This document shows positions 6,261 through 51,821 of a DNA stretch of 64,000 nt, one piece after another. The stretch lies in sequence record PP449093.1; one strand, given 5' to 3'. The notes under the pieces are model-generated. The model searched no databases, was not told where the DNA came from, and saw nothing but the letters and a program-made list of their open reading frames with translations. The position numbers were made by a program, and so were the translations under genes. Positions within the stretch are counted from its first letter, which is position 1. Each line of letters begins with the position of its first letter. This DNA is from Escherichia coli phage phiS.

Positions 6261-6293
6261 TTGGGAGAAATTAAGCGGGGAACTTCTCCCCGC
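6261..6293 (-). other. GC-rich intergenic hairpin (GCGGGGA-N-TCCCCGC) between genes 20 and 19
   Basis: Perfect inverted repeat gcggggaacttctccccgc in the 58-nt gap between gp19 stop and gp20 start. Confidence 0.5.
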
Positions 6294-6305
6294 ATGATAA
6301 TATAT

Positions 6306-6800
6306 TTATTCTACCCAATCGATAGCAAAAGTAACTTCAAACGTTTCAACTTCGTTGTTTTGTTCCCAATCGAGGGTTACTTCACCAACGTTGGTCGGGA
6401 AAATACCGTACAATGTTTTTTCGCTAGTTGATTCGGTGTTACGGTTAAGTTGACGAACAATAGCTTGTTTCTTATATTGTGCAGGAGTTGCACCAGTGAT
6501 CGCCGAACCTGTGCCATGTGTCTGATCGCTCCATGCAACGATAGCATCACGGATCTTGTGTGCGTCATCGTTGAATACAGTGATGGTCCAGTCGTCGTAT
6601 ACACGGTCGCCAGCGATGTTAATTTTACGGTTTTGATAGCCTACAGCAATTTTTTCTACGGTTGCGGCCGGGACAGTCGCAGCCTTACACATCAGCTTAA
6701 AGTTTTGCCCCAGATACGGGATCTCAACTTCAAACAGGTTAGGACGAGCAAAATCGCCAGACTCGAAACCGCGTGTAATATCATTCAAATCGAGTGCCAT
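6306..6800 (-). CDS. 19: tail tube protein gp19
   Basis: 164-aa ORF; T4 gp19 size and position between 20 and 18. Confidence 0.85.
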   Translation of the reverse strand: MALDLNDITRGFESGDFARPNLFEVEIPYLGQNFKLMCKAATVPAATVEKIAVGYQNRKINIAGDRVYDDWTITVFNDDAHKIRDAIVAWSDQTHGTGSAITGATPAQYKKQAIVRQLNRNTESTSEKTLYGIFPTNVGEVTLDWEQNNEVETFEVTFAIDWVE

Positions 6801-38675: not shown

Positions 38676-38834
38676 ATGAAATTTATCGGTAAAACTTTTA
38701 TGTTCGTAGCTGGTACTCTGTTTACTGCAACTCTGTTAGCTGGTGGCTTAGATATCTTTACTGCATTTGAAACTTTCGGGTATACTGTAGCATCGGGTGC
38801 TCTCTTCGGATTGGGTTTAGCGATTAGCAAATAA
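38676..38834 (+). CDS. small membrane protein (52 aa)
   Basis: ORF MKFIGKTFMFVAGTLFTATLLAGG... after SD AGGAGAATCAAA; hydrophobic; below ORF-track cutoff. Confidence 0.5.
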   Translation: MKFIGKTFMFVAGTLFTATLLAGGLDIFTAFETFGYTVASGALFGLGLAISK

Positions 38835-38843
38835 GGTGATAAT

Positions 38844-39047
38844 ATGGAATTTGATATGGTTAAAGCAAAATTTATGGGTAAGGATAAGAGCGGTAAAACA
38901 TTTGTTATTAATAGAACATTGTTTCGCTCTGACCTTAAGTGGGTAACACAACAATTTGCGGAAGTCAACGAGGCAGTTGTGACATGCTTCGTTGATGGTA
39001 AAAAAGTTTTTGAAATTGATCGTCGTGGGATGTCTAATGATCACTAA
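38844..39047 (+). CDS. hypothetical protein (67 aa)
   Basis: ORF with SD GGTGA upstream. Confidence 0.5.
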   Translation: MEFDMVKAKFMGKDKSGKTFVINRTLFRSDLKWVTQQFAEVNEAVVTCFVDGKKVFEIDRRGMSNDH

Positions 39048-39234
39048 ACTGTTTAGCAATACTTTGTTTCTGATTGTATTTGTTTTCTTTCTGTGTCTGA
39101 TGACCGGTGTTGTTACAGTAGGTAGCTATTCCGGTATTACCTTAGATGATTTTTGTGATCTTGTTTTAGTGTCGTTTATTCCTAGTCTACTGGTCGCTTT
39201 ATGTAGTGCTTTAATGTGGGTTTGTAAGCTATGA
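39037..39234 (+). CDS. small membrane protein (65 aa)
   Basis: Hydrophobic ORF MITKLFSNTLFLIVFVFFLCLMTG... Confidence 0.45.
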   Translation: MITKLFSNTLFLIVFVFFLCLMTGVVTVGSYSGITLDDFCDLVLVSFIPSLLVALCSALMWVCKL

Positions 39235-39341
39235 ACGAAATAGACCGAATGATGTTGATAGGTGGACCGGAGTCCACTAAATTTGATGCAATTCTTATTG
39301 CGTTGGGTTTTCTTATGATCTTTTGTATGGTTGCGCTATGA
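39231..39341 (+). CDS. small membrane peptide (36 aa)
   Basis: ATGA overlap with preceding gene; hydrophobic C-terminus ILIALGFLMIFCMVAL. Confidence 0.35.
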   Translation: MNEIDRMMLIGGPESTKFDAILIALGFLMIFCMVAL

Positions 39342-39562
39342 GTAGTATAAAATATTTCGCTTTCTTGTGCTTTATGATGTTCTTTACATTCTTAGCATGT
39401 GTTTTCTTTACCTGGCTTGCTCATGTTGATAATGCAACCGGACCGTTTTACTTCTTCTGTGTATTGTCTGTGTTGACTGGTGCTCTTGTTACGTGGATGA
39501 TTCGAGATTGTTATGGAATGTATAAGTTTGAAAAGACTCGACCGAAATTGGGCAAACGATGA
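39338..39562 (+). CDS. small membrane protein (74 aa)
   Basis: ATGA overlap start; two hydrophobic segments. Confidence 0.45.
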   Translation: MSSIKYFAFLCFMMFFTFLACVFFTWLAHVDNATGPFYFFCVLSVLTGALVTWMIRDCYGMYKFEKTRPKLGKR

Positions 39563-39741
39563 AATTATTTGCGTGGCTAATTATTTTAAATGTAATTGTT
39601 AAGACCGTTCTCGCTGGTCTGATGATGGCGCATAGCACCGAACCAGAAGAAGCATTAACGTATTTTGTTGCTTATGTGTTGGGATTCTTGCTTACTGCGT
39701 GGATGTGTGATGAATATCGAAGAATTGAGGTAAAACCATGA
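39559..39741 (+). CDS. small membrane protein (60 aa)
   Basis: ATGA-coupled ORF; hydrophobic. Confidence 0.45.
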   Translation: MKLFAWLIILNVIVKTVLAGLMMAHSTEPEEALTYFVAYVLGFLLTAWMCDEYRRIEVKP

Positions 39742-39956
39742 AAATGACTTTTTATATCTTAGCAAGTATCATGCTTGTGATCTCTTCTGCACTATTTGCA
39801 TTTCTTACCGTTTGGGGGATCTGTACTGATGCGAAGCCGTGGGATATCGTAGAAAATACGGTTATGTTTATTATTAGTGTCATGTGTCTTTTTGATGCAT
39901 TTAACTCTATCAAGGAAGAAGATCAAAAACGTCGCGAGAGAAAGCGATATAAATAA
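39738..39956 (+). CDS. small membrane protein (72 aa)
   Basis: ATGA-coupled ORF; two hydrophobic segments and basic C-terminus. Confidence 0.45.
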   Translation: MKMTFYILASIMLVISSALFAFLTVWGICTDAKPWDIVENTVMFIISVMCLFDAFNSIKEEDQKRRERKRYK

Positions 39957-39959
39957 TAG

Positions 39960-40106
39960 TGAACTAAAGACAGCGCGGTTAGAATGATTTGGACGTCACC
40001 TAGCCGCATTTATTACAGCGTATGTTGGCGATCCGGTACGCTAAAGCATTCACTTGCTAGGCCGCTAGCAGGTTGGAGACAAGGAAGATTCGCTACCTTC
40101 CCTATA
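39960..40106 (+). ncRNA. candidate structured small RNA (unclassified)
   Basis: 150-nt ORF-free segment with several inverted repeats (GCGGTTAG...CTAGCCGC, GCTAGGCCGCTAGC, GGAAG...CTTCC) ending at a strong terminator. Confidence 0.25.
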
Positions 40107-40132
40107 AGCCACTCTTCGGAGTGGCTTTTTTA
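40107..40132 (+). terminator. Rho-independent terminator
   Basis: Hairpin AAGCCACTCTTCGGAGTGGCTT followed by TTTTTAT. Confidence 0.7.
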
Positions 40133-40158
40133 TTGCCTAAAATTTTTTAAAAAAGTTG

Positions 40159-40187
40159 TTGACACCAGATCCGGCCTATAGCATAAT
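40159..40187 (+). promoter_or_regulatory. early promoter cassette copy 3 (TTGACA-17-CATAAT)
   Basis: Conserved cassette with leader ATCGAAACGAAACAC. Confidence 0.6.
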
Positions 40188-40233
40188 ACACCCATCGAAA
40201 CGAAACACACTTTCTTAAACGGAGAATCAAATT

Positions 40234-40419
40234 ATGGCACGTCGCATCACTAAAGCACTGAAAGCAGTAAGCAAAGAAAACGTAGTAGCTATTCTGGTAA
40301 TCTGGGGTTATAACGAAGAATCCGCTAAACAGAAAGTTGAAGCAGGGTTTGAACTGGCAGTAAAAGCAATGCCGAATGATGACTCTGTAGGACTGGCAAA
40401 CTATATTGCATATTTCTGA
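40234..40419 (+). CDS. hypothetical protein (61 aa)
   Basis: ORF after cassette SD GGAGAATCAAA. Confidence 0.55.
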   Translation: MARRITKALKAVSKENVVAILVIWGYNEESAKQKVEAGFELAVKAMPNDDSVGLANYIAYF

Positions 40420-40427
40420 TAAAAGTG

Positions 40428-40456
40428 TTGACAGGGGAGGATAACTCCCCTACAAT
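40428..40456 (+). promoter_or_regulatory. early promoter cassette copy 4 (TTGACA-17-TACAAT) with GGGGAG/CTCCCC palindrome in spacer
   Basis: TTGACAGGGGAGGATAACTCCCCTACAAT. Confidence 0.6.
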
Positions 40457-40485
40457 ACAAACATCAACGAAACGGGAGAATCAAA

Positions 40486-40707
40486 ATGATTAACTTTAAA
40501 GACGCAGCAAAAGAAATTATCGACTTTGAGCGTGAACTGTTTGAGATGGAACCAAATATGAGTAAACTGGAATTGGCTAACCAGATCTGGTGCTCTAAGA
40601 TGAATCCATCCGACCGCTTAGAAGTTATGAACATCGTAGGCGAAGTGAAAGGTAGTGCATTAATGAAACTCCGCGCTTGTCACGCTTACATCGCTGATCA
40701 ACTATAA
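40486..40707 (+). CDS. hypothetical protein (73 aa)
   Basis: ORF after cassette SD. Confidence 0.55.
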   Translation: MINFKDAAKEIIDFERELFEMEPNMSKLELANQIWCSKMNPSDRLEVMNIVGEVKGSALMKLRACHAYIADQL

Positions 40708-40716
40708 GGGGGTAAT

Positions 40717-40911
40717 ATGGGGGATAAACCATTAGTACAACTAAGAGTACGCTATAACCAGATTTTAGCATTACTTAAAGCTGAGGGTGTAGACCCATCG
40801 GACCGCGAGGCTGTAAAAGCGTGTCTATCTGATACGGTACAGCCAAAACATAATTTTGCTTGTTATATGTACTTTTACAATAGGTTGAATAGACCGTTTG
40901 AGTTTGAATAA
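40717..40911 (+). CDS. hypothetical protein (64 aa)
   Basis: ORF with SD GGGGG upstream. Confidence 0.5.
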   Translation: MGDKPLVQLRVRYNQILALLKAEGVDPSDREAVKACLSDTVQPKHNFACYMYFYNRLNRPFEFE

Positions 40912-40933
40912 CGTTAAGTGTTGAGGTGATACT

Positions 40934-41122
40934 ATGGAAGACCAAATTGAACAATTACGCGAATCCGCTAAAGAGCATGGTATGAGCGAAGCGTTTGTAG
41001 AATGGTTTATCTCTAAAAAGGTTGATTCCTGCGGGTGCTTTAACTTCCTTACTATGTCCATTATGTGGGAAGGTTGGAAAGGTGCTGTAGAAACTGCTCT
41101 AGAAATTATGAAAAAAGACTAA
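40934..41122 (+). CDS. hypothetical protein (62 aa)
   Basis: ORF with SD GAGGTG upstream. Confidence 0.5.
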   Translation: MEDQIEQLRESAKEHGMSEAFVEWFISKKVDSCGCFNFLTMSIMWEGWKGAVETALEIMKKD

Positions 41123-41130
41123 AAAAGTTG

Positions 41131-41159
41131 TTGACACGCGAGAGGGTGTATAGCATAAT
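41131..41159 (+). promoter_or_regulatory. early promoter cassette copy 5 (TTGACA-17-CATAAT)
   Basis: GGGTGTAT/ATACACCC palindrome spanning the -10. Confidence 0.6.
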
Positions 41160-41201
41160 ACACCCATCGAAACGAAACACGAACTACTAAGGAGTATCAA
41201 A

Positions 41202-41528
41202 ATGAAACCAGTATCTGTTAAAGTTATCTTCTCTGAATCTTCTGTATTCGCTAACGCAAACGAAGTATTCCACTTCGAAGACTTCGAGCGTAAAGCACAG
41301 GACGCGGCAGCAAAAGCCTATGAAAGCGAATATGACAAAACTCAAATCGAGGTTACTTTCGAAAACGGCACTACTTACGCTTGCCGCCTTGACCTGGGTG
41401 ATCGTCTGTCTGGCTTCCGTCACCATGTAGAGAAGACAATCGCTTTCTCTAAAACCGAAAAAGGAAAACACTACTTTTCTGTTTTCGGTACTAAAAATCT
41501 GGATTTCTTGAAAACTGTTTCTTTCTAA
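41202..41528 (+). CDS. hypothetical protein (108 aa)
   Basis: ORF after cassette SD AGGAGTATCAAA. Confidence 0.55.
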   Translation: MKPVSVKVIFSESSVFANANEVFHFEDFERKAQDAAAKAYESEYDKTQIEVTFENGTTYACRLDLGDRLSGFRHHVEKTIAFSKTEKGKHYFSVFGTKNLDFLKTVSF

Positions 41529-41536
41529 GGTATATT

Positions 41537-41719
41537 ATGAAAAAGATTAATTGGTTAGCGAACATAGGCGCGGTCTGCGCCTTTAACATCCTCGGATGGA
41601 TAATGTTACATTTTGATGAGCGAGTTTCAAAATGTGAGGGTGCATTGATTCTCGGATCTGCTAGCATATTCATTATGCTGTATGTAATTGCTGTTGACTT
41701 AAGCCGCGAGGATTGTTAA
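41537..41719 (+). CDS. small membrane protein (60 aa)
   Basis: Hydrophobic ORF. Confidence 0.45.
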   Translation: MKKINWLANIGAVCAFNILGWIMLHFDERVSKCEGALILGSASIFIMLYVIAVDLSREDC

Positions 41720-41720
41720 T

Positions 41721-41915
41721 ATGAATATTACTAATACGGCTATCGGATTTTCTAGCGCCTTTGCTAGTTTCTTTGCGCTGGTCTGTATGTTTGTTTTTAT
41801 TCCTGTTGTATATCTTGGATATTGTGATATTGAAATTGCATTGATTGCTGGGATCTATATGTGGGTTGCGGTCTTTGTTCTTTCTGTTATAATGTGCAAG
41901 ATTATTGACCATTGA
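41721..41915 (+). CDS. small membrane protein (64 aa)
   Basis: Hydrophobic ORF, two predicted TM segments. Confidence 0.45.
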   Translation: MNITNTAIGFSSAFASFFALVCMFVFIPVVYLGYCDIEIALIAGIYMWVAVFVLSVIMCKIIDH

Positions 41916-41937
41916 TTAACTATGTGAGGATTATACT

Positions 41938-42258
41938 ATGAGCAAACTGTTTGAAACTCCGCGTGAAATTCTAATTGATAAGCTGAAACAACGTGGTTTT
42001 AAAATCAAAGATGCAACCAAATACAGCCGAATTGATGAAATTAAGTTGCATTCTCTTGATGAACTGGTAGAATATGTTGCGGCAGTGGCTGATCCGCAGT
42101 TTGATGTGATTGTAGGTGACGTTGAATATCTCGATAATGTATATTCATTCTTCACTTATGGTAAAATTGTGTCTGTGAAAATATCATTCTGTGAAAATGT
42201 GGAGGTGCTTGCTAGTGAACCAGAAAAACCAACTGACAACGGTCCTACGGCAGCGTAA
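41938..42258 (+). CDS. hypothetical protein (106 aa)
   Basis: ORF preceded by TGAGGATTATACTATG initiation motif. Confidence 0.55.
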   Translation: MSKLFETPREILIDKLKQRGFKIKDATKYSRIDEIKLHSLDELVEYVAAVADPQFDVIVGDVEYLDNVYSFFTYGKIVSVKISFCENVEVLASEPEKPTDNGPTAA

Positions 42259-42529
42259 CAAGGAAGACCGTCTGATTTATGCGCTGGCGGTTATCCTTGA
42301 AAAAGAATTACCGGATCTTGATGTAGTTTTTACTGACCGACCAGTAGGCCAACGTTACGGAGGATATGACAGCCTAGTTTATCCATCATATAGCATTGAA
42401 ATGTGGGTAGAAGATTTTAAAAACTTGGCTGATACATCTAAACCGCTTTATTTGTGGGATGTTGAGTATAATTGCGATCCTAACTGGCCTGGCATTAATG
42501 TTTATGCGTCTATGACTTTAAAGGTGTGA
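42191..42529 (+). CDS. hypothetical protein (start uncertain, GTG/ATG within upstream gene)
   Basis: Long ORF overlapping the preceding gene by about 65 nt; true start not resolved. Confidence 0.4.
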   Translation: MKMWRCLLVNQKNQLTTVLRQRNKEDRLIYALAVILEKELPDLDVVFTDRPVGQRYGGYDSLVYPSYSIEMWVEDFKNLADTSKPLYLWDVEYNCDPNWPGINVYASMTLKV

Positions 42530-42531
42530 TA

Positions 42532-42690
42532 ATGGTTGAACAAATGTTAACTTCAATGGTAATGGCTTTCTGTGTGGGTGTTGTTCTGTTTGCGATGATT
42601 CCAAAAGACCGAATGAATCTGCTTGTTGCTGTGTGTTTGGGTGTGGTTAGCGGTTGGTGTGGAATCGTTCTAGAACACGCTCTGCGATGA
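42532..42690 (+). CDS. small membrane peptide (52 aa)
   Basis: Hydrophobic ORF MVEQMLTSMVMAFCVGVVLFAMIP... Confidence 0.4.
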   Translation: MVEQMLTSMVMAFCVGVVLFAMIPKDRMNLLVAVCLGVVSGWCGIVLEHALR

Positions 42691-42751
42691 TTAACAATGC
42701 GGGTAGGGTAATGTACTACCCGCACTAAATTAGCTCACTGGAGGGCTTTCT

Positions 42752-42940
42752 ATGGCGTTTTGTCTATGGTTGCTTATAGTATGCTTTGTAATTGGTTTAT
42801 GCTTCTATACTGGCGTATTCTGTTTTGTCGCCTGGATAGACGGCGGATTCTCTAATATCATTTTGCTTGCAGGATCAATTGCCTCGTTTCTGTTTATTTG
42901 GCTATTTTCATATTTGATTGGTGAATGGGATTTATTATGA
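42752..42940 (+). CDS. small membrane protein (62 aa)
   Basis: Hydrophobic ORF. Confidence 0.45.
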   Translation: MAFCLWLLIVCFVIGLCFYTGVFCFVAWIDGGFSNIILLAGSIASFLFIWLFSYLIGEWDLL

Positions 42941-43116
42941 ACAAATATATGTTTTGGGCGACCATTGCCTATGTTGTGATTGCGGTAGTATGGGGATTCT
43001 GTGTTATTGTCGCTTCTCTGATCTGGTGGGAATCACTTGGTGCGGGTTGTCTGATTAGCGGCGCATCATGTCTTATCACTGGCGTGATTGTTGGTTTTCT
43101 TGTGTCGGAGGCTTGA
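42937..43116 (+). CDS. small membrane protein (59 aa)
   Basis: ATGA overlap start; hydrophobic. Confidence 0.45.
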   Translation: MNKYMFWATIAYVVIAVVWGFCVIVASLIWWESLGAGCLISGASCLITGVIVGFLVSEA

Positions 43117-43118
43117 CA

Positions 43119-43334
43119 ATGGTTTTCTTCGGTCTTATTATAATGGTGCTTAATGTCATTTGTGGCGTTGCTATGTTAGCTATGGCCTTTACTGTTCCTA
43201 TGTCTGTTGATAGCGCCGCATCCGTAGGTGTGTTGGGAATTGTAAACCTGTTTACCGCCCTAGCATGTTGGATCACCGGACGCGATGAGGTAATGTATTA
43301 CTTTTATAAACGTAAACAGAGAAAAGGAAAATAA
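43119..43334 (+). CDS. small membrane protein (71 aa)
   Basis: Hydrophobic ORF with basic C-terminus KRKQRKGK. Confidence 0.45.
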   Translation: MVFFGLIIMVLNVICGVAMLAMAFTVPMSVDSAASVGVLGIVNLFTALACWITGRDEVMYYFYKRKQRKGK

Positions 43335-43335
43335 T

Positions 43336-43527
43336 ATGAAATTTGCATTTGGTTTTACCGTGATGTTGATTATTGCTCTGAGTATGTGTACCGGAATGCT
43401 TGTATTTGGTCTTGCAAACGGGTTTAGCATTTATAATAATCAGTGGGTTGATTGGGGAATGGTTGTCGTTAATGCGATCCTGATTGGTGCTAATACAAGA
43501 AATCTATGCAGGATCGCCGGAATCTAA
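43336..43527 (+). CDS. small membrane protein (63 aa), immediately upstream of endolysin
   Basis: Two hydrophobic segments; adjacent to the endolysin gene. Confidence 0.45.
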   Translation: MKFAFGFTVMLIIALSMCTGMLVFGLANGFSIYNNQWVDWGMVVVNAILIGANTRNLCRIAGI

Positions 43528-47010: not shown

Positions 47011-47205
47011 ATGCAAGTTTATACCAATAGCAATAAAGGACAAGATATTACGCCCGGAAAGATGTATGATTTTACCCCGGCACGAGACGACGAAAATCCA
47101 CCGACAATCGGGTATATTGAAGATGATGCGGGGTTTCGTATTACAATACTTCTTAAGGATGGATGTTTTCATCTTCGCGGTGATCGTTGGGAGTTAGTAC
47201 CATGA
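47011..47205 (+). CDS. hypothetical protein, tandem paralog family member 1
   Basis: 64-aa ORF; shares Y-x-TP...GYI-DD-G...I-I-LK-C-HL-GR-W-LV pattern with the next two ORFs. Confidence 0.5.
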   Translation: MQVYTNSNKGQDITPGKMYDFTPARDDENPPTIGYIEDDAGFRITILLKDGCFHLRGDRWELVP

Positions 47206-47447
47206 TGTATGTGATGACACCTTATAGTAACCGCAAGTATATTACACCTAATACACTGTATGAATATACACCACATGAAAGATTTTCGAATAGTGGTTAT
47301 ATCCGTGATGATAAGGGACACCAGATTTTTATTTGTCTTAAAAATTGTGCACACTTAGACGGTCGAACCTGGACACTGGTCGAAGAACCAAAACAACATG
47401 AGAATAAAGGTCTTTGGAATGTGCTAAAAAAATTCTTGAAAAAGTAG
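47202..47447 (+). CDS. hypothetical protein, tandem paralog family member 2
   Basis: ATGA overlap start; same family pattern. Confidence 0.5.
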   Translation: MMYVMTPYSNRKYITPNTLYEYTPHERFSNSGYIRDDKGHQIFICLKNCAHLDGRTWTLVEEPKQHENKGLWNVLKKFLKK

Positions 47448-47506: not shown

Positions 47507-47842
47507 ATGAGTGTTAAAGAAGTGTTTGTTTATACCGACTATGACGGGTGCGCCTATCTCACTGCTGGAAAACTTTACCGTTGTGAGATTATTCATGGTA
47601 CGCTAGGTCGAATTATGTGCGATCCGATTACAAAATTGTGGAAAAATAATCCTAGTGAGCGAGAAACTCTTATTAACCTAGATCCAGACGGTTGTTCACA
47701 TTTGGACTATAGAAAATGGCATATAGTTACACATGATGCTTATGGTATTCATCTTGCTACTAAAGAATTAACTATTGACAAGTTCAAGTTTAAAGAAATC
47801 CCGTTTGTATACTGGCTTCGCAATTTGTTTAAGAAAGGATAA
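47507..47842 (+). CDS. hypothetical protein, tandem paralog family member 3
   Basis: ORF trimmed to ATG after cassette SD (MSVKEVFVYTDYDGCAYLTAGKLY...); same family pattern. Confidence 0.55.
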   Translation: MSVKEVFVYTDYDGCAYLTAGKLYRCEIIHGTLGRIMCDPITKLWKNNPSERETLINLDPDGCSHLDYRKWHIVTHDAYGIHLATKELTIDKFKFKEIPFVYWLRNLFKKG

Positions 47843-47846
47843 TAAA

Positions 47847-48269
47847 ATGGAAACAATTAACGTACATGTTCGCCGTAGTAAGCTGCGTAGATTCTTCGAA
47901 ACCGAAATGCGCAAAACCAATGCGCAGATCAAAGAAAAGTGCTTGAATGATGGTTACGGTGAGTATATTTTCATTCGCTTTAGTCCGCATATGATCGACC
48001 GTCTAACCGATCGTCATATCGATGAACATAAGACAATGGAACTATTCAATAAGATAGAAACTCGTTTGCCGGAGATCTTCGACTTCCTGAAAATGGAAGA
48101 CCGTCCGAATCGATTAGAAATTACTGACGGTAACATGTGGATCGGGATGACAGTAGATCTAATCGAAGACGGCAAGCCATATCACGGTCTATGCTGCCGA
48201 ATGATTATAGAGAATCCAAAACGACTGGCGGGTAAAATGTCGGCGGTTGTTTTGAAGGTAGACCAATAA
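47847..48269 (+). CDS. hypothetical protein (140 aa)
   Basis: ORF trimmed to METINVHV after SD AAGGA. Confidence 0.5.
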   Translation: METINVHVRRSKLRRFFETEMRKTNAQIKEKCLNDGYGEYIFIRFSPHMIDRLTDRHIDEHKTMELFNKIETRLPEIFDFLKMEDRPNRLEITDGNMWIGMTVDLIEDGKPYHGLCCRMIIENPKRLAGKMSAVVLKVDQ

Positions 48270-48292
48270 TGGAAATTGGTTAAAAATAATGC

Positions 48293-48319
48293 TTGACTTT
48301 CTGGTGATAGGGCTATATT
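48293..48319 (+). promoter_or_regulatory. sigma70-like promoter (TTGACT-15-TATATT)
   Basis: Upstream of the secreted transglycosylase gene. Confidence 0.35.
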
Positions 48320-48355
48320 ATGGAATCAGAAAGTTAAGCCAAACAGGAGAAATTA

Positions 48356-48946
48356 ATGTTAAAAGTTCTAAAAGCGATAGTATTGAGTCTGTCACTAGCC
48401 GTTGGTGCTACACACGCATCGACTAGCGCACCGATCAAAAAAGCGCCGATAGACAACTTTACAGCACACCAACTAGATAATTTACATTTCGCCTATCAAT
48501 ACGGCGAGCAATTCGAGAAAAGCGGTAAGTTGAAAAAGTACCATCCGAATATTCGCTATAACGGAAAGGGTTTAGGTCACATCCTGGCGGGTATCGCATG
48601 GCAAGAATCAAGCGCGGGTGCAAACTTAGCACCAAAGAAAAATCATCATGCTTATGGATTATTTCAAAATTACCTTAAAACGGTGAAAGCGAAAAATGCA
48701 AAGCGCGGTGTTAAAATGAGTGATCGCCAGACTATCAACTTTATCATGAATCGCGAGGTTTCTGCATTCTACGCGATGGATGAGTTAGCATACTGGCTGG
48801 ATGTTCGAAACGGTAATATCCGACTCGCGCTAGCTTCTTACAATGCAGGGTGGAACTATAAAGCCGGGTTAGGTTATGCTGATGACGTACTAAAAAAGGC
48901 TAACCATCTAAAGAGTAAAGGCATTCTTAAGACTAAACGCTATTGA
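48356..48946 (+). CDS. secreted lytic transglycosylase (SLT domain) with signal peptide
   Basis: N-terminal signal peptide MLKVLKAIVLSLSLAVGATHA; SLT-like motifs AWQESSAG, AYGLFQ and SYNAGW. Confidence 0.6.
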   Translation: MLKVLKAIVLSLSLAVGATHASTSAPIKKAPIDNFTAHQLDNLHFAYQYGEQFEKSGKLKKYHPNIRYNGKGLGHILAGIAWQESSAGANLAPKKNHHAYGLFQNYLKTVKAKNAKRGVKMSDRQTINFIMNREVSAFYAMDELAYWLDVRNGNIRLALASYNAGWNYKAGLGYADDVLKKANHLKSKGILKTKRY

Positions 48947-48953
48947 GGAATAT

Positions 48954-49313
48954 ATGAAAAAGTTGACAATAATTGCTATGATTGCTATGATGTTCTCGGC
49001 TGGTGCGCTTGCTAGTAATGAGCGCCCTTATCCAAAGTTTGAATACAAAGGATTTGAGATCAACAAAAAGATCATTAAAACTTTCTGTGATGATGATAAC
49101 ATGTGTAGTGATTTTATCGCGCTCGAACTTGATGAAGCATACAAACAAGGTAGAGACGAAAAACGAAAAAATCGAGCATGGGATCTGAGTATTGCCAGCT
49201 TTGCTAAAACAAAACGCAACCTGTGTGATACTGCCCCTGATAAGCAATTATGCTTTGCTTATCGCGACACACTGTTAAGCCGTTTTATGGCTGGGTTGTC
49301 GTCCCGTGACTAA
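48954..49313 (+). CDS. secreted/periplasmic Cys-containing protein (119 aa)
   Basis: Signal peptide MKKLTIIAMIAMMFSAGALA; 4 Cys in the mature part. Confidence 0.5.
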   Translation: MKKLTIIAMIAMMFSAGALASNERPYPKFEYKGFEINKKIIKTFCDDDNMCSDFIALELDEAYKQGRDEKRKNRAWDLSIASFAKTKRNLCDTAPDKQLCFAYRDTLLSRFMAGLSSRD

Positions 49314-49328
49314 TGAGAGGTTTATATT

Positions 49329-49784
49329 ATGATTATTGATACTGTAAAGGGCGATCTCATCGCCCTGTTTAAACAAGGAAACGGTCATTTAATTCATGGT
49401 TGTAATTGTTTTCATACTATGGGCGCTGGTATTGCTGCAAAGATCGCGAAAGAGTTACCGCAAGCGTTAGAGATTGACAAGCAAACTTCTCGCGGTAAGG
49501 TAGAAAAGCTGGGTGGGTTTAGTGTCTGGACGCATCAAGTTAATGGTTATAACTGGTGCGGGGTGAATCTCTATACCCAATTCCGACCGGGTCCAAATGC
49601 TGAATATGGTGCTATCCTGAAAGGATTTGAGACTATCAATGATGTTTTTGAAGGTGCTATACAGCCTTTCTATATTCCTAAAATCGGTTGCGGTATCGGT
49701 GGCCTTGAGTGGGAATGTGTAGAAGAGATCATTAATATTGCTACTCCAGACATTAACATTGTGGTGGTTGAATATGACAAATAA
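49329..49784 (+). CDS. macro-domain-like protein (putative ADP-ribose binding/hydrolase)
   Basis: Pattern GDL...LIHGCNCFHTMGAGIAAKIA...GGFSVWTHQVNG...IPKIGCGIGGLEWE resembles the macro-domain glycine-rich loops; weak assignment from motif reading only. Confidence 0.45.
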   Translation: MIIDTVKGDLIALFKQGNGHLIHGCNCFHTMGAGIAAKIAKELPQALEIDKQTSRGKVEKLGGFSVWTHQVNGYNWCGVNLYTQFRPGPNAEYGAILKGFETINDVFEGAIQPFYIPKIGCGIGGLEWECVEEIINIATPDINIVVVEYDK

Positions 49785-49968
49785 AAATGATCTATATTCC
49801 GGTGATTGGGTGAAACGTCAGTCTGTAGAAAACGTAACTTGTTTTCGTTGTTTCACTGAATACAATATAAAAACCGCTCCTGTTAGTGTTCCAAAGACAG
49901 ACGGGTATTATATTAAAGAACCGCATTGCCCTAAATGTAAATGTCGATTATATTGGAGTCATCTATGA
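49774..49968 (+). CDS. small zinc-ribbon protein (64 aa)
   Basis: CFRC...CPKCKC motif pair. Confidence 0.45.
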   Translation: MTNKNDLYSGDWVKRQSVENVTCFRCFTEYNIKTAPVSVPKTDGYYIKEPHCPKCKCRLYWSHL

Positions 49969-50183
49969 AGAAGCCTAATACCGCTCACATGAAAGAAAAC
50001 TGCCGATGTGTTAGATGTGGTTGGCCTATTATATTCACTTGCTGTAACGACGATATGCAGCGTTTACCGTGGGGAATGTGGGATTGGTGGATGTATTGCA
50101 GCAATAAAGGTTGCGACCATCATGAAGGTGAAGGAGTCTTTCAGGAAACACCTGATTGGGTGGAGGTGATAGAAAATGCTTGA
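49965..50183 (+). CDS. small Cys/Trp-rich protein (72 aa)
   Basis: ATGA overlap start; CRCVRCGW...FTCCN...CSNKGCDHH. Confidence 0.45.
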   Translation: MKKPNTAHMKENCRCVRCGWPIIFTCCNDDMQRLPWGMWDWWMYCSNKGCDHHEGEGVFQETPDWVEVIENA

Positions 50184-50469
50184 GACTATCATTAATCTTG
50201 TTGTGTGGACTTTTATTTTCGTTATTGTTATTATGGCGGGTGTAGAGATTGTAAAACAATATCTATTGCAATCTCGAAATAAACATGTTGTCGTTGATAT
50301 GGACTCGCAAGGCAATAAGTTGATCCGGTTAGAAGATGGTCGGGAATATTGGGTCGGGTATCCCAAAACTCTGAAAGGGTTTATCCTTGCCATGAGCATT
50401 AACATCTTTTTCATTGGTATCTGGACTTATATCGGTTTAGGTCTTGTTGGATTTTTGGAGATTAATTAA
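50176..50469 (+). CDS. membrane protein (97 aa)
   Basis: Two hydrophobic segments at the N- and C-termini. Confidence 0.5.
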   Translation: MLETIINLVVWTFIFVIVIMAGVEIVKQYLLQSRNKHVVVDMDSQGNKLIRLEDGREYWVGYPKTLKGFILAMSINIFFIGIWTYIGLGLVGFLEIN

Positions 50470-51436: not shown

Positions 51437-51821
51437 TTTTCTAAAGACTTCCGAAGAGGGAAAGGCTAATAAAGTTGACCGCTTTATCGGTGAATGTCTG
51501 ATGAGTGTTACTTATATGCATTCTGCGCATTTTGGGGTAACTGGTCCTGGATCTTATGCAAAACATAAGGCTCTAGAAGAGTTCTATCTTGAAATGCAAG
51601 AATTGGTTGATAATTTCACTGAAACCAATATTGGGATCACTGGTCGTTATCAGCCAAAGTTGGTCGTCCGCAAGGAGATTAGCGAAATTGCCTATTTGCA
51701 AGAGTTAACGCAAATGGCTAGTGAGATTTATAATGATGTTGATAGCTCGTTACAGAGCGTTTTAGACGATATCAAAGCTCTATGCTTTAAAACAATTTAT
51801 AAACTCACTCGACTGGCTTAA
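51423..51821 (+). CDS. hypothetical protein (132 aa)
   Basis: ORF trimmed to MKFSDFLK overlapping the previous stop. Confidence 0.5.
   Translation: MKFSDFLKTSEEGKANKVDRFIGECLMSVTYMHSAHFGVTGPGSYAKHKALEEFYLEMQELVDNFTETNIGITGRYQPKLVVRKEISEIAYLQELTQMASEIYNDVDSSLQSVLDDIKALCFKTIYKLTRLA

Follow-up and report, generated by a model that had tools for sequence, protein, structure and literature searches.

The vs.1-vs-tk.4 block of a Krischvirus: a predicted exported lytic transglycosylase, a Vs protein with a predicted signal peptide, and a stand-alone macrodomain

In bacteriophage T4 the genes regB-vs.1-vs-tk.4-...-tk follow one another in this order. The T4 orthologues of the three genes considered here have been catalogued since 1986, the matches of vs.1 to SLT and of tk.4 to A1pp/macro domains have been in print since 2006 (PMC1524935), and in 2025 T4 tk.4 was named AdfM (anti-DarT factor, macrodomain; bioRxiv 10.1101/2025.11.20.689424). 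In that study tk.4 was the sole significant hit of a DarTG2 screen, and its clean knockout sensitized T4 to this system; the support for AdfM is genetic, with hydrolysis inferred by the authors, and the passages searched contained neither an assay nor an active-site mutant (bioRxiv 10.1101/2025.11.20.689424). PhiKZ AdfM is a phage mimic of DarG2, proven biochemically. The macrodomain protein SCO6735 strips DarT-made, thymidine-linked ADP-ribose from DNA, its Q85A variant being inactive and N27S nearly so, and its Val25 works via the backbone (PMC9411070); both TARG1 and SCO6735 de-modify proteins as well (PMC9411070).

The locus and its promoter

We analyzed a window of 64,000 nucleotides from Escherichia coli phage phiS (PP449093.1), which is that of a Krischvirus (RB49/JSE/Phi1-like; 98-99% identity to deposited genomes). 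Three + strand ORFs were verified at the coordinates given in Table 1; the matching genes of KMB43, E26, JSE and Phi1 (region 98-99% identical) are annotated vs.1, vs and tk.4, and the three products match deposited Krischvirus proteins at 97-100% identity. The gene order is identical to that of T4, with the block just 3' of regB. Identities to the T4 proteins (pairwise BLASTP) are 52% for Vs.1 (E = 2e-55), 27% for Vs (E = 4e-8) and 43% for Tk.4 (E = 6e-44), and the matching PHROG families are phrog_600 for vs.1 (E = 1e-59), phrog_1256 for vs (E = 1.8e-33) and phrog_335 for tk.4 (E = 1.5e-60). The window genes are orthologous to T4 vs.1, vs and tk.4, and an orthology error is very unlikely. 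The T4 block vs.1-vs-tk.4 would be a conserved one in which each gene is dispensable singly.

An earlier note, made from the sequence of the window, had regarded secreted muralytic enzymes as foreign to the canonical T4 early region; this is wrong, because T4 itself carries the same genes in the same order (regB-vs.1-vs-tk.4). Its reading of the three products was borne out. The first is a signal-peptide SLT transglycosylase (WQESS, GLFQ and YNAGW are present; Pfam SLT PF01464 at 25.8 bits over residues 76-167, a marginal pass of the gathering score of 21.3), the second has a canonical n/h/c N-terminus and four Cys, and the third is a macro domain with glycine-rich HTMGAGIA and IGCGIGG loops (Pfam Macro PF01661 at 27.0 bits, cut-off 22, profile positions 1-118 of 118). 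Profile searches of the kind that the note had proposed, here with PHROG and Pfam, gave matches well beyond chance and support both the SLT and the macro folds. The cluster is ordinary and already known, and after the catalog of 1986, the similarities of 2006 and the anti-DarTG2 role assigned to tk.4 in 2025 little is added by describing it again; the one oddity is the site of Vs action. We consider it probable that the locus is the Krischvirus copy of vs.1-vs-tk.4, encoding exported Vs.1 and Vs and a cytoplasmic anti-DarTG2 Tk.4 that would have an operon in common, and not a mechanism. The roles proposed below for all three genes are carried over from T4 or from distant homologues.

The block is preceded by a promoter-like site (TTGACT-17 nt-TATTAT, with A-rich sequence upstream), which lies inside the 86-nt spacer between regB and vs.1 and the -35 hexamer of which, at 48293, is where the segment singled out in the earlier note begins. 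In T4, by contrast, regB and vs.1 are only 7 nt apart, with no such spacer. An equivalent promoter site is annotated in phage GEC-3S. The region has about as many consensus promoter matches as chance predicts (17 against an expected 15.6), and the promoter call therefore rests on position and conservation rather than on statistics. The Shine-Dalgarno sequence of vs.1 (caGGAGaaatta ATG) contains the sole GGAG between 48200 and 49800 (by pattern count), at which, from the specificity of RegB given in the T4 and GEC-3S annotation notes, RegB would be expected to cleave. The three consecutive, co-oriented genes and the site before them are as the earlier note had described; its picture of three genes behind their own promoter holds for the genes and the site, and probably not for a unit of three. 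On the + strand 3' of tk.4, up to position 51500, no terminator-like site was found, and the transcription unit, rather than being limited to three genes, therefore probably continues via small Zn-binding ORFs and reads on through tk. The sigma-70 early promoter would accordingly transcribe vs.1-vs-tk.4 and likely onward.

Table 1. Features of the vs.1-vs-tk.4 locus (positions in the window)
Feature	Coordinates	Strand	Basis
Sigma-70-type (early) promoter-like site	48293..48321	+	Consensus scan, 10/12 matches; GEC-3S annotation
GGAG in the vs.1 Shine-Dalgarno sequence; RegB endoribonuclease target motif	48346..48349	+	Pattern count
vs.1, single-domain GH23/SLT lytic transglycosylase, exported (predicted), 196 aa	48356..48946	+	Pfam, PHROG, BLASTP, AF2/Foldseek
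Vs.1 predicted signal peptide, aa 1-21	48356-48418	+	n/h/c heuristic
Vs.1 catalytic Glu84 (predicted)	48605-48607	+	Motif I, homologue alignment
vs, annotated 'valyl-tRNA synthetase modifier', 119 aa	48954..49313	+	
Vs predicted signal peptide, aa 1-20	48954-49013	+	n/h/c heuristic
tk.4 (AdfM orthologue), stand-alone macrodomain, DarG/TARG1/SCO6735 (ALC1-like) class, cytoplasmic (predicted), 151 aa	49329..49784	+	Pfam, PHROG, BLASTP
Tk.4 Asn26	49404-49406	+	Alignment to SCO6735 Asn27
Tk.4 Gln84, at the DarG/TARG1 catalytic Lys position	49578-49580	+	Alignment

The macrodomain Tk.4

Tk.4 is a full-length orthologue of T4 AdfM, of the same size, encoded likewise 3' of vs and having HGCNCFHTMG, YTQ and IG(C/A)GIG in common with it, although the two proteins are only 43% identical. 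The family comprises about 2,770 phage records, and the Vequintavirus copies (68% identity) are closer to the window's Tk.4 than that of T4 is. The closest PDB sequence matches are DarG 5m3i (the best, E = 2e-7), BT1257, SCO6735 5e3b and TARG1, and DarG is also the sole match in NCBIfam (E = 2e-11) and in PADLOC (E = 1e-12), over its macrodomain part only. Against the DarG equivalog model NF048014, Tk.4 scores 43.7 bits over model positions 2-141 of 338; this is far below the cut-off of 250 because the C-terminal DarT-binding domain of DarG is missing from Tk.4. Tk.4 is an orphan macrodomain and not a DarG equivalog.

The active site sets Tk.4 apart from DarG. With DarG (T. aquaticus 5m3i/5m3e; M. 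tuberculosis) and PhiKZ AdfM it has in common the macrodomain fold and the equivalent of Asn22, but Lys80 of DarG and Lys78 of PhiKZ AdfM are replaced by Gln in the aligned Tk.4 homologues. In an alignment of 38 rows T83 is invariant and Gln84 is found in all 36 Tk.4 family members, whereas the TARG1 and DarG rows have Lys; Tk.4 thus has Gln84 where the Lys-type active site has its Lys after the conserved Thr (DarG K80, TARG1 K84). Q84 aligns with the Gln of 'NMIGQH' (Gln85) in Streptomyces coelicolor SCO6735 (5e3b), and N26 with its N27, the positioning Asn, and both proteins stand alone. SCO6735 is nevertheless a distant relative (phmmer E = 7.6e-6) and, unlike Tk.4, a bacterial housekeeping protein rather than a phage counter-defense; Val/Ile25 and the extended, Lys-rich loop of SCO6735 (Lys89/Lys94) find no counterpart in Tk.4, which has Gly24 at the position of Val25 and a loop shorter by about 5 residues.

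A catalytically dead Tk.4, which the loss of the DarG/TARG1 Lys might suggest, was considered and rejected, because the Gln is invariant in the aligned homologues and SCO6735 cleaves dT-ADP-ribose with this same Gln (PMC9411070). The active site would be of the Gln type seen in SCO6735, rather than of the DarG/TARG1 Lys type, with Asn26 positioning Gln84 for a water-mediated reaction; the catalytic details may differ from those of SCO6735, because of Gly24 and the shorter mobile loop. Having Gln in place of Lys would put the Tk.4/AdfM family mechanistically with SCO6735, and predicts Q84 and N26 as its key residues.

In the cytoplasm, Tk.4 would bind and hydrolyze the ADP-ribose that DarT2 attaches to thymidines of single-stranded phage DNA, with the result that DarTG2 could not block replication. 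The suggestion of the earlier note that the macro domain may counter ADP-ribosylation-based defenses such as DarTG fits the findings on T4 tk.4/AdfM (bioRxiv 10.1101/2025.11.20.689424), and so was already known. Action on ADP-ribose linked to proteins or small molecules instead of DNA (the phage's own Alt/ModA/ModB ADP-ribosylation or RNAylation, host toxin marks, ADP-ribose-1''-phosphate, O-acetyl-ADP-ribose) would agree with the database labels 'phosphatase', 'Poa1p-like' and 'O-acetyl-ADP-ribose deacetylase' and the old 'A1pp phosphatase', with the removal of protein marks by TARG1 and SCO6735 (PMC9411070), and with the many family members that infect hosts without known DarTG2 relevance. 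We regard it as unlikely: DarG is the only defense or antitoxin family matched, the Gln-type relative SCO6735 hydrolyzes thymidine-ADP-ribose on DNA (PMC9411070), and in T4 the clean tk.4 knockout, from the only significant hit of the DarTG2 screen, is sensitive to this system, whereas in the T4 insertion data loss of tk.4 is neutral when DarTG2 is absent.

Vs.1, a lytic transglycosylase homologue with a predicted export signal

Vs.1 has the E-S, G-L-F/M-Q and (A/S)-Y-N-A-G signatures of T4 Vs.1 and of family-1 lytic transglycosylases (E. coli Slt70, P. aeruginosa Slt/MltD, Neisseria LtgA), its motifs I (WQE84S86S), II (YGLFQN) and III (SYNAGW) being all intact. Among 20 homologues E84, S86, G101, F103, Q104, Y162 and G165 are invariant, N163 is conserved in at least 90%, and the HHAYGxFQN and SYNAG motifs are otherwise kept in every one; the Det7 homologue also clears the Pfam SLT cut-off (21.6 bits). 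A PDB sequence search with Vs.1 gave chance matches only (E at least 0.12), and the fold was therefore taken from an AF2 model (pLDDT 84.6) and Foldseek. The top 19 PDB matches of the model are lytic transglycosylases or GH23 chitinase, with MltD, Slt and LtgA as the best (probability 1.0); the probability is 0.92-1.0 across the top 17 and 0.63 by rank 19, at TM scores of 0.40-0.51 and E about 1e-2. As modeled, Vs.1 has the goose-lysozyme-like alpha-helical GH23 fold. The structural matches to bacterial lytic transglycosylases are only moderate (TM 0.4-0.5), and Vs.1 differs from these enzymes in being a single domain of ~175 mature residues, without superhelical, LysM or lipid-anchor modules, and in a phage-specific N-terminal helix-hairpin (aa 35-70). 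Searches of NCBIfam and PADLOC found no match for Vs.1 or Vs.

Both Vs.1 and Vs begin with canonical n/h/c N-termini (MLKVLKAIVLSLSLAVGATHA/S in ORF1 and MKKLTIIAMIAMMFSAGALA/S in ORF2, the slash marking predicted cleavage). We scored such N-termini with a home-made heuristic that asks for a positive n-region, an uncharged hydrophobic h-region, small residues at -3 and -1 and a hydrophilic remainder. Both window proteins pass it, as do 19 of 20 Vs.1 homologues and every one of the 20 Vs homologues; none of the 38 rows in the Tk.4 alignment does. Within the window 11 of 102 ORFs pass; of the nine besides Vs.1 and Vs, eight are 52-79 aa long with more hydrophobic stretches and one has 277 aa. 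Vs.1 and Vs are, on these features, predicted to be Sec-exported. Fold, motifs and export signal are all in evidence for Vs.1, and from them we infer its transglycosylase activity and its biological purpose: Vs.1 would be exported by its Sec signal peptide and processed to a ~19.8-kDa periplasmic family-1 (GH23) lytic transglycosylase, the Glu84 of which would cut MurNAc-GlcNAc bonds of host murein to leave 1,6-anhydro-MurNAc ends.

An enzyme of this type could also serve in lysis or entry, as an accessory endolysin or a virion-associated wall-piercer, instead of as an early periplasmic remodeler. In PHROG, Vs.1 does match 'lytic tail protein' and 'internal virion protein with endolysin domain' weakly (E values around 2e-3 to 4e-3), but these matches span just the common SLT domain; among its homologues, 'putative lysin' is the annotation in Felix-O1-like phages, and the gene of Sf15 lies ~1.2 kb upstream of spanin genes. 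The gene itself, on the other hand, belongs to the early region: it follows a sigma-70 promoter, and its Shine-Dalgarno sequence contains a GGAG of the RegB type. The endolysin e of T4 depends on holin, whereas Vs.1 has a Sec signal of its own, and T4 e is near-essential, whereas vs.1 is non-essential (insertions at 46 of 52 sites). We judge a lysis or entry role improbable, and retain the early periplasmic remodeler.

The compartment of Vs and the vs.1-vs pair

ORF2 had not been identified in the earlier note as vs, the annotation of which reads 'valyl-tRNA synthetase modifier'. A word-indexed search found 5 relatives of Vs and an exhaustive HMMER search 20. Vs is orthologous to T4 ORF 60.9 (BLASTP E = 4e-8, hmmsearch E = 1.7e-13, identical synteny); the two are very divergent, at 27% identity, and have the signal-peptide-like N-terminus and the four-Cys pattern in common. 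In all 20 family members the N-terminus is of this kind, with a positive n-region, 9 or more residues of hydrophobic core and small residues at -3 and -1; the four Cys (C45, C51, C91 and C100 in the window) are invariant, and two members carry lipobox variants. The mature protein is helical and of 11.6 kDa. A PDB sequence search with Vs returned no matches, and our literature search found no discussion of a Vs signal peptide. The inherited functional label conflicts with this predicted export: ValRS binding calls for a cytoplasmic location, and what all 20 members present is a predicted signal peptide and four Cys. The export prediction weakens the ValRS-modifier label of Vs, without disproving it.

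The genomic context ties Vs to Vs.1. Because the Vs alignment contains no conserved stretch of 7-10 columns, vs.1-vs loci were gathered from IMG/VR with a Vs.1 profile; in all 37 loci having a Vs homologue, the distance from the vs.1 stop to the start of vs is in the range -7 to +8 nt. Vs.1 occurs in the absence of Vs in Ackermannviridae, Ounavirinae and Aeromonas T4-likes, and Vs is therefore not needed for Vs.1 function. T4 transposon data bear on the pair as well, insertions in both genes being depleted compared with those in the surrounding genes: in LB liquid culture, mean counts are 26.6 for vs and 22.6 for vs.1, as against 128-652 for regB, tk.4, vs.3 and tk, and both fall further in M9, where the log2 fold change is -2.19 for vs (adjusted p = 0), -0.87 for vs.1 (p = 0.0055, adjusted p = 0.155) and -0.07 for tk.4. 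Polarity on vs might account for the depletion of vs.1 insertions in T4.

Co-expressed directly 3' of vs.1, Vs would most likely be an exported, helical 11.6-kDa protein with two disulfides, located in the envelope with or beside Vs.1. We propose, tentatively and with low confidence in the full scheme, that Vs is a Sec-exported, two-disulfide periplasmic regulator, inhibitor or targeting partner of Vs.1, in an effector-immunity-like arrangement, with the ValRS label either mis-assigned or reflecting a secondary or post-lysis effect, and with the minimal-medium defect being an envelope phenotype.

Also to be weighed is a Vs that binds host ValRS in the cytoplasm as a factor of 10-13 kDa and alters its properties, its N-terminal segment unused for export, or the protein acting before or without export, and its adjacency to vs.1 mere synteny; such a protein is possible, if doubtful. 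In work of the 1960s-80s, a temperature-sensitive ValRS becomes stabilized in vivo on T4 infection, an effect that is lost in vs mutants, which would argue for cytoplasmic action; the ValRS-modifier annotation is found in T4 and most relatives. Minimal medium is where, specifically, the T4 vs knockout does poorly, perhaps through an effect on translation or amino-acid economy. Yet signal-peptide features, lipoboxes and four invariant Cys are common traits of envelope proteins and rare ones for a cytoplasmic enzyme-binder, and at every one of the 37 loci the vs start is no more than 8 nt away from the vs.1 stop. The 1986 T4 record lists only 'ORF 60.9', so that vs was attached to this ORF later, and the T4 region holds several further ORFs of ~10 kDa. 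Finally, T4 Vs with an N-terminal His tag forms inclusion bodies (PMC8076793), as would be expected of a blocked signal peptide. From the sequence features and the gene spacing, a periplasmic partner of Vs.1 suits Vs better than a cytoplasmic ValRS modifier does.

The association does not extend to tk.4 in the same way: vs.1 and vs are closely coupled, and tk.4, the likely anti-defense gene, is a looser neighbor. Among the 37 vs.1-vs loci, tk.4 directly adjoins the pair in 23, is separated from it by an insertion in 8 and is absent within 4 kb in 6; where other phages have ORFs between vs and tk.4, Pfam matched none of these. The three genes could in principle be one functional system, for example an envelope-to-cytoplasm anti-defense module, given that they are co-oriented, close, behind a single promoter and syntenic with T4, and that an Ackermannviridae phage encodes a Tk.4 homologue immediately after its homologue of Vs.1. 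This is very improbable and was rejected as largely refuted by distribution and fitness data: Vequintavirus has tk.4 without vs.1 or vs, in copies nearer to the window's than that of T4; adjacency is kept in just those 23 loci; tk.4 is neutral in T4 where vs and vs.1 are not; and the predicted compartments differ.

The label 'valyl-tRNA synthetase modifier' has been copied into hundreds of phage genomes, for a protein that looks exported and tied to Vs.1, the predicted murein-cleaving enzyme. If Vs is indeed exported, a 50-year-old label would have been given to the wrong gene or would imply the wrong compartment for its product, and an unstudied early periplasmic cell-wall module would be present in T4-like phages.

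Gene order and transcription of the cluster

Between 47700 and 51100 the sequence shares 98-99% identity with the Escherichia phages KMB43, E26, JSE, Phi1 and RB49 (all Krischvirus, Straboviridae), and the JSE annotation names the three ORFs vs.1, vs and tk.4, flanked by regB and tk. The earlier note had correctly recognized three consecutive genes within 48293-49784; they are on the plus strand and tightly spaced, and a Shine-Dalgarno sequence precedes each. Its premise that a secreted muralytic enzyme lies outside the canonical T4 early region was mistaken, because T4 has the identical gene order (regB-vs.1-vs-tk.4-tk.3-tk.2-tk.1-tk) and orthologues of all three products (BLASTP identities of 52%, E = 2e-55, for Vs.1; 27%, E = 4e-8, for Vs; and 43%, E = 6e-44, for Tk.4). 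Matches of vs.1 to SLT and of tk.4 to A1pp/macro were already on record for six T4-like genomes (Nolan et al., 2006; PMC1524935), and by T4 transposon data none of the three genes is classed as essential under laboratory conditions.

The three genes had also been placed behind their own promoter. A promoter-like site is present, and it carries a promoter annotation in phage GEC-3S; matches of this class are not enriched in the region (17, versus 15.6 in shuffled sequence), so that the call rests on position and conservation, not statistics. The transcription unit does not appear to be confined to these genes: a scan found no terminator-like site on the plus strand 3' of tk.4 as far as 51500, and the unit probably runs on through two small zinc-binding ORFs, a 97-residue ORF and tk. 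The only GGAG within 48200-49800, the motif cut by the product of the adjoining regB, lies inside the vs.1 Shine-Dalgarno sequence; this would fit a vs.1 that is expressed early and transiently.

Several neighbouring features were also recorded. The strongest sigma-70 consensus match of the region lies inside vs; it may be fortuitous, or it may serve tk.4 and the genes further down as an internal promoter. The two zinc-binding proteins match the Pfam 'Phage zinc binding domain' (PF23903, E = 1.8e-23; PF23895, E = 5.6e-34) and are followed by the 97-residue ORF (phrog_16027; N-terminus hydrophobic and membrane-like by eye) and then thymidine kinase; these three ORFs stand where T4 has tk.3, tk.2 and tk.1. 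The three paralogues before regB, hypothetical proteins in the JSE annotation, share the pattern '...LY..TP....GYI.DD.G......LK..C.HL.GR.W.LV' (A versus B, 43% identity, E = 6e-13; A versus C, 30%, E = 6e-4).

Coordinates of the features discussed (L numbers denote loci of other phages)
Feature	Position	Strand	Size	Remark
regB	47847-48269			
ORF1, vs.1	48356-48946	+	196 aa	
ORF2, vs	48954-49313	+	119 aa	
ORF3, tk.4	49329-49784	+	151 aa	
Promoter-like site TTGACT-17-TATTAT	48293-48321	+		In 86-nt spacer 3' of regB; -35 hexamer starts at 48293
Sigma-70 match TTGACA-17-TATGAT, extended TG	48963-48991	+		11/12; within first 40 nt of vs coding sequence
Three small tandem paralogous ORFs	47011-47205, about 47199-47447, 47507-47842	+		Just 5' of regB
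Region with the two small zinc-binding proteins	49774-50469	+		3' of tk.4
Run of tiny hydrophobic ORFs	38676-43527	+	52-79 aa	At least eight ORFs
Salmonella phage STP4-a gp109	L010:2818-3219			Slot protein
Acinetobacter phage 133 p122	L008:2722-3141			Slot protein
Aeromonas phage Aes508 gp094	L009:2064-2504			Slot protein
Aeromonas phage phiA8-29 (Ackermannviridae)	L007:3004-4234			Vs.1 homologue, then directly a 239-aa Tk.4-like protein
Shigella phage Sf15 (Ounavirinae)	L005:3001-3549 and 6269-6465			Vs.1 homologue 3' of rIIA-rIIB, and a macro-domain gene
Escherichia phage isim (Vequintavirus, rV5-like)	L011:2501-2959			Tk.4 copy

Vs.1 and Vs as a predicted exported pair

Profile searches upheld both domain calls of the earlier note, with Vs.1 scoring 25.8 bits against Pfam SLT (cut-off 21.3) and Tk.4 scoring 27 bits against Pfam Macro (cut-off 22, entire profile covered). 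Vs.1 also matches phrog_600 (E = 1e-59), and the catalytic Glu84, Ser86 and the motifs HHAYG(L/M)FQN and SYNAG are invariant or nearly so among 20 homologues. The best PDB matches of its AlphaFold2 model (pLDDT 84.6) are the lytic transglycosylases MltD, Slt and LtgA and a GH23 chitinase (probability 0.92-1.0 for the top 17; TM 0.40-0.51, E about 1e-2). By our own n/h/c heuristic the N-terminus (MLKVLKAIVLSLSLAVGATHA/S) qualifies as a classical Sec signal, found in 19 of the 20 homologues, the sole exception being a truncated gene call. Relatives occur in 2,085 phage records (tblastn), including Ackermannviridae and Felix-O1-like Ounavirinae. Together these results point to a widespread, exported, single-domain lytic transglycosylase that is probably active; the literature searched states no biological purpose for it. 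An exported transglycosylase near a macrodomain recurs over phage families, as in two phages outside Straboviridae, phiA8-29 and Sf15; in Sf15 the Vs.1 homologue precedes the spanins by about 1.2 kb, and a macro-domain gene is about 2.7 kb away.

Vs matches phrog_1256 ('valyl tRNA synthetase modifier', E = 1.8e-33) and has only 20 relatives in an exhaustive HMMER search. A charged n-region, hydrophobic core and small -3/-1 residues are present in all 20 aligned sequences (with lipoboxes, LSGC and LLAC, in two), and the mature part has exactly four cysteines, in invariant columns (C45, C51, C91 and C100). The Cys-containing second protein noted earlier stands, as do the two signal peptides, as predictions. 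None of the 38 Tk.4 alignment rows scored positive by the heuristic, and 11 of 102 ORFs across the window did; of the nine besides Vs.1 and Vs, eight are 52-79 aa proteins with additional hydrophobic stretches. Tiny ORFs of this kind, with strongly hydrophobic N-termini, form a run that is probably a small-membrane-protein cluster.

The AlphaFold2 model of Vs (pLDDT 80.8) has an N-terminal signal-peptide helix and then four helices; a structure search found no meaningful PDB neighbour, and strong BFVD matches were limited to other Vs proteins. Such predicted features typify proteins that reside in the periplasm and carry disulfide bonds, and they fit poorly with a factor binding cytoplasmic valyl-tRNA synthetase. 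The 1986 T4 sequence record names the gene merely 'ORF 60.9', so the vs name was given later; His-tagged T4 Vs is published as insoluble.

Scanning IMG/VR with the Vs.1 profile gave 69 loci, which we analysed with HMMs. A Vs homologue is present in 37 (many near-duplicates, so the effective number is below 37), and in every one vs starts -7 to +8 nt from the vs.1 stop; Vs is missing beside four close and all 27 distant Vs.1 relatives. Of the 37, 23 have the macrodomain gene immediately after vs, 8 have it beyond an insertion of 0.35-0.6 kb, and 6 have no tk.4 within 4 kb. The ORF inserted 3' of vs in STP4-a and phage 133 is itself a signal-peptide protein, which suggests a small, variable, envelope-directed neighbourhood of exported proteins. 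More generally, the slot that separates vs (or vs.1) from tk.4 in other T4-like phages holds an extra 133-146 aa protein with a signal-peptide or lipoprotein-like N-terminus; those of STP4-a, phage 133 and Aes508 have no Pfam match, and STP4a_109 and Acj133_p122 share 26% identity (E = 1.6e-5).

The T4 transposon data are independent evidence on linkage. Insertions in vs and vs.1 have a common fitness cost that is absent from the flanking genes, with vs.1-on-vs polarity possible. Insertions in regB rose in M9 relative to LB (not significant after correction) while those in the adjoining vs.1 and vs dropped.

T4 transposon insertions in LB versus M9 (HIDEN-SEQ, Data S8; mean count is the LB liquid control)
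Gene	Mean count	log2FC in M9	p (adjusted)
vs	26.6	-2.19	<1e-5 (0)
vs.1	22.6	-0.87	0.0055 (0.155)
tk.4	289.6	-0.07	not significant
regB	178.6	+1.17	0.049 (0.80)
tk	127.7	-0.07	not significant
vs.3	652	-0.06	not significant

Tk.4, a Gln-type macrodomain

The closest PDB sequence relatives of Tk.4 are the DarG macrodomain (5m3i, E = 2e-7), BT1257, SCO6735 (5e3b) and TARG1. DarG is its sole NCBIfam match (E = 2e-11) and its sole PADLOC match (E = 1e-12), in each case over the macrodomain part alone; the C-terminal half of DarG is absent. The proposal that the macro domain counters ADP-ribosylation-based defence was sound and, according to a 2025 preprint (bioRxiv 10.1101/2025.11.20.689424), already demonstrated in T4: tk.4, named adfM, is the single T4 gene needed on a DarTG2 host, and its clean knockout sensitises T4 to DarTG2. 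The AdfM of PhiKZ, a Lys-type enzyme, takes ADP-ribose off TNTC DNA in vitro.

When 36 family members are aligned with TARG1 and DarG, a Thr is invariant, and the next residue is Gln in all 36 homologues, at the position of DarG Lys80 and TARG1 Lys84 (also in pairwise alignments); the passages searched of the T4 adfM and PhiKZ AdfM papers do not mention this exchange. Loss of a catalytic residue was rejected as an explanation, since SCO6735, with Gln85 at the same position, cleaves the thymidine-ADP-ribose that DarT makes; activity is lost in its Q85A mutant and also requires Asn27, the residue that positions Gln85 (PMC9411070). Because Gln85 and Asn27 have aligned counterparts in Tk.4, Gln84 and Asn26, Tk.4 is best described, from its sequence, as a Gln-type, SCO6735-like orphan macrodomain, differing from SCO6735 in Gly24 (for Val25) and a shorter mobile loop.

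The family spans about 2,770 phage records. The nearest copies outside Krischvirus are in Vequintavirus, where vs.1 and vs are absent; 68% identity to these rV5-like copies, against only 43% to T4 Tk.4, suggests that unrelated E. coli myoviruses have exchanged the gene horizontally.

Biological reading of the cluster

The cluster is an operon neighbourhood and not a single system: vs.1 and vs are tightly paired genes for predicted exported proteins, beside which tk.4 would, by analogy, be a mobile cytoplasmic anti-DarT enzyme. We raise tentatively, as a rather doubtful possibility, that the label 'valyl-tRNA synthetase modifier' may sit on a protein that partners a phage lytic transglycosylase in the periplasm; this possible identity of Vs is the only thread here with real potential for novelty.
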